A stretch of 64,000 nt of DNA from Candidatus Latescibacterota bacterium (GTDB taxonomy: Bacteria > Latescibacterota > UBA2968 > UBA8231): positions 1,600,001 through 1,664,000 of the forward strand of contig CBDCXV010000010.1 in the NCBI GenBank assembly GCA_965223905.1, written 5' to 3'. The notes under the pieces were generated by a model. It was not told where the DNA came from and made no database searches. It saw nothing but the letters and a program-made list of their open reading frames with translations. Made by a program: the position numbers and the translations under genes. Of this stretch, positions 1,546 through 47,169 are shown piece after piece (within the stretch, counting starts at the first letter, position 1; the number at the start of each line of letters is the position of its first letter).

Positions 1546-1618
1546 TTAGTCAATGGGATTCGAACCCGGGTAACCTTCGACTGCGACGCCGATGCTCTAT
1601 CATTTGAGCTACAGAGGC
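1546..1618 (-). pseudogene. tRNA-like relic
   Basis: Minus strand GCCTCTG-TA-GCTC-AAATGATA-GAGC-A-TCGGC-GTCGCA-GTCGA-AGGTTACCCGGG-TTCGAAT-CCC. D arm, anticodon stem and T loop recognisable; anticodon loop is 6 nt and the 3' acceptor strand does not pair. Confidence 0.5.
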
Positions 1619-2243
1619 TCAAAACGCCGTGGTCGGATGGGACCCCCATCTCCTGCTCTCTCCGATGAAACTGCTGGAGAAGCTGGCGGCTCTGGTTCTC
1701 CCGCCCCGGTTTCATCTCCTGCGCAACCACGGGGTCCTGGCGCCCCGGGCCCAGATCCGCGACCTCATCGTGCCGGCCCAACCGGTTGCCGAGCCGGCGG
1801 CGGCGGACGGCTCGGCGAGCGCTGCGTCCTGCGGCCATCGGCGGCGGTGGGCGACCCTGCTGGCGCGGGTGTTTTCCTCCGACCTCAGCGAATGCGCTGC
1901 CTGTGGCGGTCGCCTGAGAATCATCGCCGCCCTGACCGATCCGGCTTCGATCCGGACCTGTCTGGAGGGGGTAGGGCTGCCGGCGATGCCCCCGCCTGAG
2001 CCGCTGTTCGAGTTCGCCGCCTGACCTGCCTTCTCGACCCGTGGCCGTCGCCGGGTACGGCTGGGTGTGCCCTCAACGGTCCCTCAGGCCCCGGATTGAT
2101 CCGGATACGGGCCGACAGGCAACCAAACTACTGCGAGCTCGGTCGAAGGACTGGCAACGATCCTCAGGGGAGTTGCCAGACCCTTGCGGTACGCTCAGCG
2201 CCTTGACCGAGAGTCCAAAAAAGGTGCCTCATTTTACCTATAC
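1617..2243 (+). mobile_element. ISCR/IS91-family fragment A (tnpA 3' end + oriIS)
   Basis: KTPWSDG..., PPRFHLLR.HGVLAP, CAACGGRLRIIA, then conserved 3' UTR ending ATTTTACCTATAC, resembling the ISCR oriIS TTCCTATAC. Confidence 0.9.
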
Positions 2244-2909
2244 TTCGATCCCGAACTCAAGGCCGGAGACCTGCTGCTCGTAAACGAGCACACCTGGCAC
2301 AAAGCGCCGAGCGGCACTTCCTCGGAAGATCGGTGCGGAATCTTCAACAAGTATTGTGCAGTCGACGCGCCTCCAGCTGCTGGCTACTATCCGTATAGCC
2401 CGGCAGCCCTCGACGCCCTGAGTGATGCCGGCAAGCGTCTCATCCCCGTCTGTTTTGACAAACCGATCACGACGACGCGCCTTCTAATAGAGCATCCGTC
2501 CGGTCAGGAATCGAGATACCTGATGCTGCATGACGACGAGCACGACCGCTGGGAACTGCCGGGGGGAGAAGGCTGGGAAGAGGAAGGGGTTGGCTGGGAT
2601 ATCGGCGCGCGGATCGGCTCTCTGCAGGAACTCACAAAGACACAGCTCGGACTGGACATCCCGTGGATGTCCTACATCGAGGATGTTGAAACGAAAGACG
2701 GTGTCTGCCGACTGTACGGCTACTCCGATGAAACATTGCCTCCTGACCAACTGGCCCGCGATCGGCATGAGTGGTTCACGAAAGACCAGCTACGGCGACT
2801 CCTCGGTGAGAGCGACTGGATCTGTCGCGCCGTCCAGACCTGGAAGCGCCGGGATATCATTCGAGGCAAAGGCAAGGTGGTCCGCCAGAGCGAACGGCAG
2901 TTCGAGTGA
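2244..2909 (+). pseudogene. 5'-truncated PhyH-like C-terminus fused to NUDIX-like domain
   Basis: LKAGDLLLVNEHTWH and RWELPGG motifs; reading frame begins right at the oriIS junction. Confidence 0.55.
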
Positions 2910-3511
2910 CGCACACTGGCTTACCGACCGGCCACAGGATTCACATAGTTGGGAATAGCTGCGCTGGAAAAAGCACCTTGGGAGCGCAGCTGTCGGCCGC
3001 CCTCGGCGTCCCCTTGGTGGAGTTGGACGCGCTCAATTGGCAACCTGGCTGGGTTGCTCTGAGCGACACAAACCCCGAGGAACTCGAACGGAGAATAGGC
3101 GAAGCAACCCGTGGTGATGGATGGGTTGTGGCCGGCTCCTACATGCAATTTTCACAACGCATTTTCTGGCCACGCCTGGAGACGATCGCTGGCTGGATTT
3201 GCCCATGGTTCCACTCATCTGGCGAATGCTGATTCGATTCGTGGCGTCGCTGGCGGTCGCAGGAGCCGCTTTGGGGGACAAACTACGAGCGTTTCTGGCC
3301 CCAGCTCATGGTCTGGCGCAAGGAGGATTCGCTGCTATGGTGGATTGTCACGCAGCACCGGCGCACGCGTCGCAGTATGCTGGCATATACTACTGAATCG
3401 TCTTGGAACCACATACGATTTGTGCGTCTTAGATCTTCTGCTGAGGTCGGGGCGTTTTCACAGGCTGTGGCACTCAGGACTGACAGCCTGACAGGCCTCA
3501 ACGAGCTTTGA
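2906..3511 (+). pseudogene. Adenylate kinase/FlaR-like P-loop protein, frameshifted near 3190
   Basis: GNSCAGKST P-loop and ELDALNWQPGW; continuation W.DLP...RRW...W in other frames. Confidence 0.7.
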
Positions 3512-3528
3512 TCACATGAAGGAGTGAA

Positions 3529-45464: not shown

Positions 45465-45699
45465 CGTTCAGGGATACCGTGCGAGCGGGAAGCGAGTGTC
45501 GAGGATCCCGGATCTCACTCCCGGTCCACCGCGGGAGCGCGCCGGAAGGCCCACAGACAGATCAGGAAGGCGGCGGCGGTCTCCACCAGCAGGATGGAGA
45601 TGGGCAGGTAGCTGCCGACCACGGCGGACGCCAGGGAGACCCGCACCCCCCGAAGCGGGGGATGTCCCGGTGGTCGAGAGGCCGCGGGGAGACGGCGGC

Positions 45700-46152
45700 G
45701 TCATCATGCTCAGCGTGCCACCGGCGCTGGCCGGGGGCATTCTCGGGCTGGAGGTCGTCAACCACACGCTGACCTATCAGCCGCTCGACATCCTCACCAT
45801 GCTCGGCTTCGTCATCCTCATCGGCGTGGTGGTCAACAACGCCATCCTCATCGACCACCAGACGCTCAATATCCTGCGAGACGCGCCCGAAACCCCGCTC
45901 AAGGAAGCCATCCGCGACGCGGTTTACAGCCGCGTGCGGCCGATCTTCATGTCCACGATGACCAGCGCCCTGGGGATGCTGCCGCTGGTCATCTTCCCCG
46001 GTGCAGGATCCGAGCTTTACAGGGGTCTGGGAAGCGTGGTGATCGGGGGGCTGCTGCTGTCGACGCTGTTCACCCTGTTTCTGGTGCCTACGTTCCTCAG
46101 CCTGGCCATGGATCTGAGAGCCTGGATCGGCCGCGTCGGGAGGGGAGTGTAA
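45700..46152 (+). pseudogene. C-terminal fragment of an AcrB/RND transporter
   Basis: LIGVVVNNAILID, RVRPIFMST, GSELYRGLG.VVIGGL. Confidence 0.8.
46051..46144 (+). repeat. 94-bp direct repeat copy 1 (RND 3' end)
   Basis: Matches 52052-52145 with one mismatch seen. Confidence 0.9.
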
Positions 46153-46247
46153 AGGGCGGACTGCCCCTCCCCTGGGGTATTTCGAGGTTTAGGGGGGTGC
46201 AGAAAGTACGTGCGGGGGAGCTGCTGCGGTCAGCGGCCCGGCACTTC

Positions 46248-47169
46248 GCCGGTGCTGGCGGCTCTCACCGCGGCTTCGGTGCGAGGGCTCACCGCCACCG
46301 GGGCAGGCGCCGGCCAACGCCTGCGCCGGGTCCTGAAAGATGCGGCCACCGGGGTGCGTACGGCGCCCTTGTGCTTTGCTTCGCGCGGCTTTTCCCTGCA
46401 TGCGGCAACGCGGATCGCCGGCCCTGACCGGCGCGGGCTCGAACGCTTATGCCGCTACGTGGCCCGGCCGGCCCTGGCGGGGGGGCGTCTGCGCATTCTC
46501 GATGCCGACCATCTTTCCTTCGCGCTCAAAACGCCGTGGTCGGATGGGACCCGCCCTCTCCTGCTGTCTCCGATGGAACTGCTGGAGAAGCTGGCGGCTC
46601 TGGTTCCCCCGCCCCGGTTTCATCTCCTGCGCTACCACGGGGTCCTGGCGCCCCGGGCCCGGGCCCGCGACCGCATCGTGCCGGCCCAGCCGGGTGCCGA
46701 GCCGTCGGCGGCAGACGCCTCGACGAGCGCTGCGTCCTGCGGCCATCGACTGCGCTGGGCGACCCTGCTGGCGCGGGTGTTTTCCTCCGACCTCAGCGAA
46801 TGCGCGGTCTGTGGCGGTCGCCTGAGAATCATCGCCGCCCTGACCGATCCGGCCTCGATCCGGACCTGTCTGGAGGGGGTAGGGCTGCCGGCGATGCCCC
46901 CGCCGAGGGCCCCGCCTGAGCCGCTGTTCGAGTTCGCCGCCTGACCTCCTCCGCGATTCGCTCCCTGCGCCGTGAGCCGTACGGAGGAGTACGCCCTCAA
47001 ATACCAGATTGACCCCTGAAACGCGCCGAAATCCTTTACAACGGTGCTCGGAGCAGGCCCGAACGATTCGGTGCGACGACAAGCGATTCATCAGGAACCC
47101 TGCCTAACCCTTGACAACAGTTTCAGCGAATTGATAGTACCGATATCGGTGCCCTTATTTTTCCTATAC
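46248..47169 (+). mobile_element. ISCR/IS91-family fragment H with alternative 3' UTR/oriIS
   Basis: FSLHAA, LERLCRYVARP, RYHGVLAP; UTR diverges from about 47000 but ends GTGCCCTTATTTTTCCTATAC. Confidence 0.85.

Follow-up and report, generated by a model that had tools for sequence, protein, structure and literature searches.

Right-end fragments of an ISCR-like IS91-family element in co-oriented arrays on Candidatus Latescibacterota chromosomes

The spread of resistance and virulence genes is attributed to elements of the IS91/ISCR type, and their one-ended footprints have been studied mostly on a few plasmids. Helitrons, a rolling-circle type of element found in eukaryotes, have asymmetric ends and carry gene fragments. 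Here we describe a 64,000-nucleotide stretch of a Candidatus Latescibacterota genome (contig CBDCXV010000010.1, positions 1,600,001 to 1,664,000, hereafter the window), in which eight dead repeats derive from the right end of an ISCR-like IS91-family element that is endemic in Candidatus Latescibacterota. We consider it somewhat probable that these copies are abortive rolling-circle products, subsequently reshuffled by recombination between copies, and that their local orientation was established through accretion or strand-specific insertion.

The closest described systems are IS91 and IS801. Transposition of IS91 starts at oriIS and ends, unreliably and with frequent overrun, at terIS; a single-strand circle formed from the bottom strand is the working intermediate, and one-ended transposition occurs (PMC13181058). 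Inverted terminal repeats are absent from IS91, as they are from the intact Latescibacterota element described below. IS91 also possesses orf121 and a CTTG/GTTC target next to oriIS (PMC13181058), whereas in Latescibacterota only C-W-T is conserved after the terminal ...CCTATA. Fragments of IS801 in Pseudomonas syringae likewise keep the right (ori) end without the left part as a result of an early stop, and right-end pieces of 229, 360 and 679 nucleotides (nt) made up 26% of the insertions caught in vivo (PMC3189936). Natural IS801 fragments lie mostly beside rearranged DNA, and the authors of that study held that most of them reflect reorganization and serve as recombination substrates (PMC3189936). 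In contrast to the three discrete sizes of IS801 pieces, which are bounded by a ter-like tetranucleotide, the Latescibacterota copies have dozens of breakpoints with no recognizable word; and while only 5 of 17 natural IS801 fragments keep the right end without the left (PMC3189936), the Latescibacterota copies combine strong polarity with high density and local co-orientation. ISCR elements combine an HUH transposase with ori and ter ends that differ from each other and with a precise right boundary beside varied DNA, as seen here, but they lie beside resistance genes (PMC13393415), whereas the Latescibacterota copies are chromosomal, mostly stubs, belong to an uncultured environmental phylum and have no resistance genes beside them.

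Transposase remnants in the window and an intact relative

Comparison of the window with itself revealed a single repeat family of eight members, all on the + strand and with every pair matching plus/plus, in agreement with the eight co-oriented copies and their starts in the initial annotation. Given the first copy, a uniform orientation has a chance of 2^-7 by simple arithmetic. The copies, labeled A to H, are listed below with their extent on the intact element of locus L001, which we call the master and whose nucleotide numbers are those of L001.

1617..2245, + strand: copy A, right-end fragment, master 10279-10927, terminal motif intact
8439..9336, + strand: copy B, longest fragment, master 9689-10585, HUH region, two reading frames, without the 3' tail
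15721..16389, + strand: copy C, right-end fragment with intact end, matched by BLAST from master 10268 on
21885..22181, + strand: copy D, short fragment of the right end, master 10620-10920, broken off at ...ACCT
24485..25282, + strand: copy E, from master 9761, intact end
28019..28653, + strand: copy F, main part, master 10279-10920, broken off after ...ACCT
29942..29949, + strand: copy F, last 8 nt, CTATACAT, behind an IS110-family element
31824..31905 (approximate), + strand: copy G, remnant of ~80 nt, master 10542-10600 with a jump to just past the stop codon, no end
46248..47171, + strand: copy H, from master 10003, frame open to the natural stop (46944)
47001-47171, + strand: second-type tail of copy H, terminal motif intact

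These copies are 3' parts of an ISCR-like IS91-family transposase gene with a non-coding tail ending in ...ATTTTWCCTATACWT. Multiple alignment and translations placed them in register over the 3' part of the gene, with a common stop codon after ...FEFAA, and the Pfam domain Y2_Tnp (PF04986) matches, in part, reading frames of B, C, E and H; an H-V-H motif can be read in the translations of B and E. The type-1 tail comprises ~230 nt of non-coding DNA after the stop and has a sharp end, ...GGTGCCTNATTTTACCTATACTT. Copy H is not cut at its 3' side but carries a second type of tail with the same terminal motif. Intact right ends lie at 2245, 16389, 25282 and 47171, and the terminal word ATTTTNCCT occurs seven times on the + strand and not at all on the - strand in 64 kb. 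Six copies had been said to keep oriIS, and this holds, with four ends intact, one split by an IS110-family element and one cut by a piece of the same. Equally, no window copy contains a full transposase gene, as even B, the longest, covers only master 9689-10585 of an open reading frame (ORF) at 9269-10699. Internal deletions are present in E, where ~325 nt are missing between two GCTGGCGGCTCT words, and in G. Pairwise identity is 78-96%, so each copy is distinct. The 5' ends had been described as staggered, which they are, but they also share a hot spot: A and F begin at one breakpoint and C lies ~11-24 nt upstream of it. An extension of A to 1592 is possible but uncertain from the self-comparison.

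A full-length transposase, which the initial annotation had suggested seeking elsewhere, was found in a related genome. A protein search over 1.84 billion representatives returned 18,367 relatives, and among the best 150 of these, 22 were at least 75% identical, all of them only 123-346 amino acids (aa) long. A genome scan with the 244-aa frame of H, a query from the 3' part of the gene, gave at least 65 loci, and the close relatives sit in six Candidatus Latescibacterota records of metagenome-assembled genomes that are titled complete chromosomes. One of these loci, L001 (OZ244619.1), encodes an intact, uninterrupted ORF of 476 aa at 9269-10699. The protein scores 73.5 bits against Zn_Tnp_IS91 (PF14319, cut-off 26.3) and 101.1 bits against Y2_Tnp (PF04986, cut-off 20.9), and it is ~40% identical to plasmid-borne IS91-family transposases. 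The best NCBIfam model is ISCR_clade_Ia with 354.3 bits, under the naming cut-off of 925, and transpos_IS91 gives 103.9 bits, under its cut-off of 125. NCBIfam thresholds serve to name close relatives rather than to delimit the family, and the profile matches indicate that the L001 transposase is a distant IS91-family member. The two domains and the ISCR clade Ia model uphold the ISCR/IS91 identity proposed for the fragments. Only the two IS91-type domains were found in the L001 protein and no helicase domain, whereas the Rep endonuclease of Helitrons is fused to a helicase.

The L001 element spans ~9055-10927 (~1.87 kb), and comparison of long copies places its left end near 9055, at a small palindrome. 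This left end (CGCCTCCCCATCCGGGGGAGG...) is unlike the right end, and terminal inverted repeats were not found, as none of the 25 longest of 55 inverted pairs in L001 9030-10950 joins the termini. The copy next in length, that of L019, has a frameshift close to the 3' end of its gene.

Polarity and orientation across six chromosomes

To the window we added 31 loci from six Latescibacterota chromosomes, the 34 other loci being from other phyla or short contigs and left out of the copy map. After removal of overlaps, the map holds 103 copies, of which 8 are in the window and 31 are seeds; the other 64, called secondary, lie within 10 kb of a seed. Seed copies are biased by the 3'-part query, whereas secondary copies are unbiased. 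An intact transposase frame is present in only 1 of the 103 copies, the master in L001, where intactness was judged by the count of aligned pieces for the seven copies that reach the gene start and by the ORF list for L019. Overall, ~0.6 Mb sampled from the six chromosomes holds 95 copies, nearly all of them stubs and locally co-oriented. Literature searches on IS91 in Latescibacter and on co-oriented truncated IS91-family copies gave no description of such arrays.

The polarity noted in the window is borne out by the 64 secondary copies, whose coverage rises from 4 at master 9220, near the gene start, to 42 at 10740, near the right end. The left 100 nt (up to 9160) are reached by only 4 of them, while 43 reach the right end or the second tail, with 33 type-1 ends and 10 switches to the second tail at 10740-10756. 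The second tail is ~172 nt long and has the same terminal motif, ...GGTGCCTTATTTTTCCTATACAT. Among 74 ends examined, the strict terminal motif is present in 58 and several others are near-variants, which supports the shared right, oriIS-type end claimed for the window copies. Flanks beyond the motif are random in these 74 ends, and in 4 of them foreign DNA is inserted directly after ...CCT. The bases that follow ...CCTATA in the 58 strict ends are C, then T or A (45 and 11), then T (54 of 58) and then mixed bases; the T/A position varies with tail type and may be part of the element rather than of the target.

The 5' ends are clustered, with 17 of 103, including those of A, C and F, falling within 28 nt (master 10267-10294), where arithmetic predicts 1.5 under a uniform distribution. 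The hot-spot copies are separate events, because their exact breakpoints and left flanks differ. Other breakpoints recur at 9961, 10098, 10204, 10339 and 10620. We propose that transposition would start at the conserved right end (...GGTGCCTYATTTTWCCTATACWT), run back through the transposase gene and often stop early, so that the pasted product would comprise the right end plus a variable length of the 3' part of the gene; the polarity and the breakpoint hot spots would follow from such a start and such early stops. This step is inferred here and experimental for IS801 and IS91; for both elements, the initiation at oriIS and the imprecise termination that the initial annotation had invoked are on record (PMC13181058, PMC3189936).

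Local orientation is nearly uniform: 60 of the 64 secondary copies are co-oriented with their seed, which under free orientation has a chance of ~4e-14 (arithmetic). Both orientations occur between distant loci of one chromosome. Along the map of OZ244619.1 the orientation changes sign four times, and all 19 copies mapped at 3.63-3.75 Mb are +, a co-oriented run of at least 125 kb; on OZ242214.1, 9 of 10 loci fit a two-block pattern. In HUH elements of the IS608 type, a single-strand intermediate integrates into one template strand at the replication fork. Strand-specific insertion of this sort would give one orientation per chromosome arm, with the broken flanks arising from later deletions in a dispensable region rich in insertion sequences, and we judge it improbable. 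The long run in OZ244619.1 and the two-block fit of OZ242214.1 agree with it, as do the remains of ISKra4-family, IS110, IS3 and IS481 elements in the window and the poor coding quality of the flanks, where coding periodicity was detected in 11 of 56 left and 12 of 56 right flanks versus about half of control sites. The four sign changes in OZ244619.1, however, are a misfit to two equal arms, the sign of the GC skew, taken relative to the element, is mixed among the loci, and the element's strand holds genes for only 58% of the coding length, with a majority in 18 of 32 sequences (the 31 loci and the window). Strand-specific insertion would also need a separate deletion at almost every copy. 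Furthermore, an IS630-family element of ~1.17 kb in the same loci (274.7 bits, cut-off 100; L041 2643-3817, with others in L011, L013, L031 and L059) has a mixed orientation, 5 + and 3 -. Because no clear link to replication or transcription is apparent and IS630 is mixed, the local co-orientation is specific to the IS91-type family. A replication-linked strand bias, in replication arms that rearrangement later broke up or in blocks along the chromosomes, is a possible cause of the orientation, as is the growth of arrays.

In the explanation that we favor, uniform local orientation would result either from recombination-type accretion, which always yields direct repeats, or from strand-specific insertion, and we lean slightly toward the former.

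Junctions, exchange between copies and age

Flanks are readable in four window copies (A, B, C and E), and all four join unrelated gene pieces. The gene pieces at these junctions are as follows.

2247..2906, + strand: PhyH/Nudix-type gene, 3' part only, truncated by the right end of A
9337..10183, + strand: Gfo/Idh/MocA oxidoreductase gene with its start missing, adjoining B, profile positions 33-120 of 120
15540..15720, + strand: PhyH-like gene start with a frameshift, truncated by the 5' junction of C, read from the alignment only
16391..16600, - strand: gene start, first 70 codons, signal-peptide-like, cut by the right end of C, read in translation
24390..24484, + strand: ABC-transporter ATPase-like start (LLQVRNLSKRF), cut by the 5' junction of E, read in translation

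Several of these cuts had been proposed from the sequence alone, and two are now substantiated by homology. For the PhyH gene cut at 2244, the homologues are ~370-380 aa long and their alignment to 2241-2906 does not begin before residue ~158-180; the Gfo gene cut at 9337 lacks approximately the first 32 profile positions. The cut secreted-protein gene at 16388 and the ABC ATPase start near 24484 can be read in translations, although the latter has no profile support and LLQVRNLSKRF is a motif that we take, from general knowledge, to be that of an ABC ATPase. The PhyH-like start cut at 15720 can be read in the alignment, but 15540-15720 has no Pfam match at E<=0.05. Copy A thus joins non-genic DNA to the PhyH/Nudix-type piece; B has the Gfo gene on one side and, on the other, a weak - strand match to the GAPDH C-terminal profile (20.9 bits, below the cut-off of 24.4); and E has an ABC ATPase start before it and something else after it.

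Base composition also changes across the copies. The median absolute difference in G+C across a copy is 0.049 (88 copies), versus 0.032 at 3000 control sites from the same loci (Mann-Whitney p=3.6e-5), and G+C in the window ranges from 0.55 to 0.71 per 2 kb. Where both flanks are coding, 0 of 3 copies keep the strand, compared with 354 of 411 control sites. Most copies lie between discontinuous flanks. The gene content of the flanks and the breaks in G+C support the earlier claim that the fragments mark joints between unrelated DNA. In the second step of the proposed mechanism, which is partly shown, the pieces would act as dispersed direct repeats, and recombination or gene conversion between them would delete, exchange and probably import the intervening DNA, so that each piece comes to join two unrelated, often broken stretches of differing composition.

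Two candidate features at these junctions were set aside. The PhyH pieces to the right of A and to the left of C were considered as halves of one gene, which would imply an integrated circle, but the homologues do not match 15540-15720. A sequence at 1553-1619 on the - strand, abutting the 5' junction of A, resembles by eye the 5' two-thirds of a tRNA (acceptor, D arm, GGTTCGAATCC); ARAGORN and Rfam (E<=1) did not support it, and it is recorded as a by-eye remark only.

A related chromosome provided a direct comparison. Window 9337-18503 is collinear with locus L041 (OZ242214.1, ~6.298-6.307 Mb) at 99.6-99.8% identity, bar three indels, with stretches of ~519, 92 and 102 nt (10029-10547, 15523-15614 and 16479-16580) present in the window and missing from L041. 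The 92-nt indel removes the start codon of the PhyH-like piece in L041. This independent assembly backs three junctions, the right one of B and both of C, which bears on the possibility that the joins are repeat-induced chimeras of a metagenome-assembled genome. Although repeats of 0.3-0.9 kb can mislead short-read assemblers, such an artefact is highly improbable here: the three junctions recur at 99.6-99.8% identity in the other chromosome, pairwise identity of 83-96% makes each copy unique, and the same arrays are present in six records titled single complete chromosomes.

The same comparison gave evidence of exchange between copies. Copy C is orthologous to L041 10912-11581, where the flanks and the first 144 nt are identical, the central 381 nt are 92.7% identical and the last 145 nt are 96.6% identical. 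The divergent center is read as putative gene conversion from an unsampled copy, and no donor for this patch with more than 94% identity was found in the sample. The L041 orthologue of B starts at master 10140 (B at 9689) with entirely different DNA on its left, and it has the complete tail and a further 8 nt ahead of the same Gfo flank; the tail of B was therefore lost in a recent deletion and the left side was exchanged.

Substitution patterns point to old, inactive copies. Over 48 copies, pairwise differences at the three codon positions are 0.116, 0.077 and 0.159, with 0.195 in the tail, and this inequality implies selection on working elements during part of the divergence. For six copies of the window (A, B, C, D, F and H), the differences are flat at 0.054, 0.064 and 0.064, and because their substitutions are even over codon positions the window copies look old and dead. 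Their nearest relatives lie partly in the window and partly at distant loci of OZ242214.1, and the nearest relative lies within 60 kb for 23 of the 48 copies.

The initial annotation had proposed serial accretion into a Helitron-like gene-shuffling island, and these data do not demonstrate such accretion or gene capture: duplicated captured DNA was not found, non-orthologous copies share no left flank abutting the junction, the PhyH pieces do not form one gene, the window has no intact transposase and its copies look old. In its transposase-driven form, masters would act in trans on stub right ends and read into the DNA on their left, and units of a DNA chunk plus a stub would be pasted beside resident stubs, or recombine into them as circles, in Helitron-like shuffling. 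We regard this form as doubtful. It would account for the local co-orientation (60 of 64) and for the location of fragments at compositional breaks between unrelated gene pieces; an intact master is present in a related genome (L001), and two copies of a 97-nt AcrB-type gene end flank copy H. Both IS91 and IS801 are known to take adjacent DNA along in one-ended transposition (PMC13181058, PMC3189936). Directly oriented arrays also form by means of a comparable unit in IS26, where they lie between unrelated segments, as here (8 of 8 window copies; 60 of 64 secondary copies) (PMC4196232, PMC7885326). An IS26 unit, however, is a complete DDE element that inserts beside another IS26 through its own transposase (PMC4196232, PMC7885326), whereas the repeats here are HUH stubs without a transposase, not complete DDE copies, and thus fall outside IS26-type translocatable units. 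The flanks also argue against transposase-driven accretion, as left-flank DNA abutting the 5' junction is common to no two non-orthologous copies among the 103, and copies with the same breakpoint have differing left flanks; shared right flanks were traced to the second tail type, an IS110 piece and two small cases. Moreover, the window lacks an intact transposase; in its closest relative, the longest two copies sampled (in L010 and L011) each map in two pieces with part of the gene absent; the window copies are 4-17% apart, with substitutions even over codon positions; and the PhyH pieces do not add up to a single gene. Serial accretion, like gene capture of the Helitron kind, is possible. 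There is perhaps a minor chance that stubs ending in ...CCTATACWT are nicked in trans by a few intact masters and would serve as launch pads, copying the DNA on their left, and as landing pads.

Several observations weigh against abortive transposition followed by recombination, the explanation that we favor. Only 31 of the 65 listed loci were analyzed, and the seed copies, unlike the secondary copies, are query-biased. Transposition is seen only as a footprint, and deletions on the 5' side could give the same polarity. Hairpins predicted at the ends fold no better than shuffles (z -0.6 to -1.9), and inspection by eye of 96 listed 5' breakpoints from the 103 copies revealed no ter-like word. 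A test of flank continuity by open frames (9 of 56 joined pairs open, versus 8.0 in shuffled pairs) fits non-continuity but has little power, because few flanks (11 and 12 of 56) look coding. The case for gene conversion is based on one orthologous pair of copies, and recombination alone leaves the co-orientation of 60 of 64 neighbors unexplained.

IS110-family insertions, neighboring sequences and implications

The terminal motif of the stubs is itself a site of insertion, as illustrated by two IS110-family features in the window.

28654..29941, + strand: IS110-family element in the terminal motif of F, transposase ORF 28903-29889
22182..22318, + strand: IS110 left-end piece of 137 nt joined to D, 94.9% identical to 28654-28790

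The transposase scores 174.8 bits against transpos_IS110 (cut-off 140), and a DEDD transposase above the cut-off together with a short core target in a repeat identifies the element as a member of the IS110 family. In F it lies directly after ...ATTTTACCT, with CT on both sides, and the junction ...ACCT/CGTATAATAGG is common to D and F. An 11-nt copy of the left junction (ATTTTACCTCG) is located at 28802-28812 in the upstream non-coding region of the element, as a guide would be, and the word ATTTTACCT also starts at 28801. The fold of this upstream region (z -1.0) is not better than shuffles, the whole window has no Rfam match, and the element is absent from all 65 loci listed. Different foreign DNA is present at the same CT in L005 (near 10879) and L060 (near 10316).

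Other sequences recur beside the stubs. The last ~97 nt (46048-46144) of an AcrB-type fragment at 45457-46149, which comprises the C-terminal part only, are found again at 52049-52145 with 97.9% identity, and between the two lie copy H, a large gene for a secreted protein and an IS481 remnant. The AcrB end also occurs twice in L019 (1541-1646 and 17564-17687), again bracketing IS91-type copies, and this duplication could be a trace of recombination-type integration. Window 52047-55205 matches L019 17564-20692 (OZ252098.1) over 3.1 kb at 98-99% identity, a segment that contains a 605-aa ORF of no family and a methyltransferase; the IS91-type copies of OZ252098.1 are at most ~95% identical to the window copies, and this difference in similarity suggests a recent exchange or a mobile unit. 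Two further segments lie again beside IS91-type stubs in other arrangements: 16614-18429, a PhyH-domain gene, matches L022 8078-9883 (93.9%, inverted, 116 nt left of a stub 5' junction), and 19998-21316, with a 379-aa ORF of no family, matches L026 4987-6304 (1.3 kb, 87%, 79 nt right of a stub end). The region 36000-46000 has 68-71% G+C and very long overlapping frames on both strands with no Pfam match, and 672 nt within it (38889-39560) are 92% identical to DNA ~500 nt right of a stub end in L021 and L037.

The remaining content includes an ISKra4-family transposase cut by the window edge (3-1238) and a leucine-rich-repeat protein gene that runs off the window (61184-64000), with 66-nt tandem units of which 18 are in register. 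Other mobile or defense-type genes lie within 5944-7014, 19718-21696, 23585-24274, 26194-27996 and 41770-42852; they encode a SIR2-domain protein, a DUF4926 and DUF6883 pair with an IS3-type helix-turn-helix remnant, a DUF6036 nucleotidyltransferase, a GmrSD-type restriction enzyme and a tyrosine integrase.

Overall, an element of a known kind is found here unusually dense and polar in an environmental phylum, and IS110-type elements homing to the terminal motif of its stubs are visible as well. If the stubs are only products of decay and recombination, the arrays would be an ordinary graveyard of insertion sequences, though an unusually clear one. If instead intact masters can still nick the stubs in trans, Latescibacterota chromosomes would accumulate co-oriented arrays of imported, fragmented DNA, a bacterial, genome-scale counterpart of Helitron shuffling. 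The arrays offer a natural data set on the stop sites of rolling-circle transposition, on the activity of stubs in trans and on the contribution of stubs to chromosome mosaicism.

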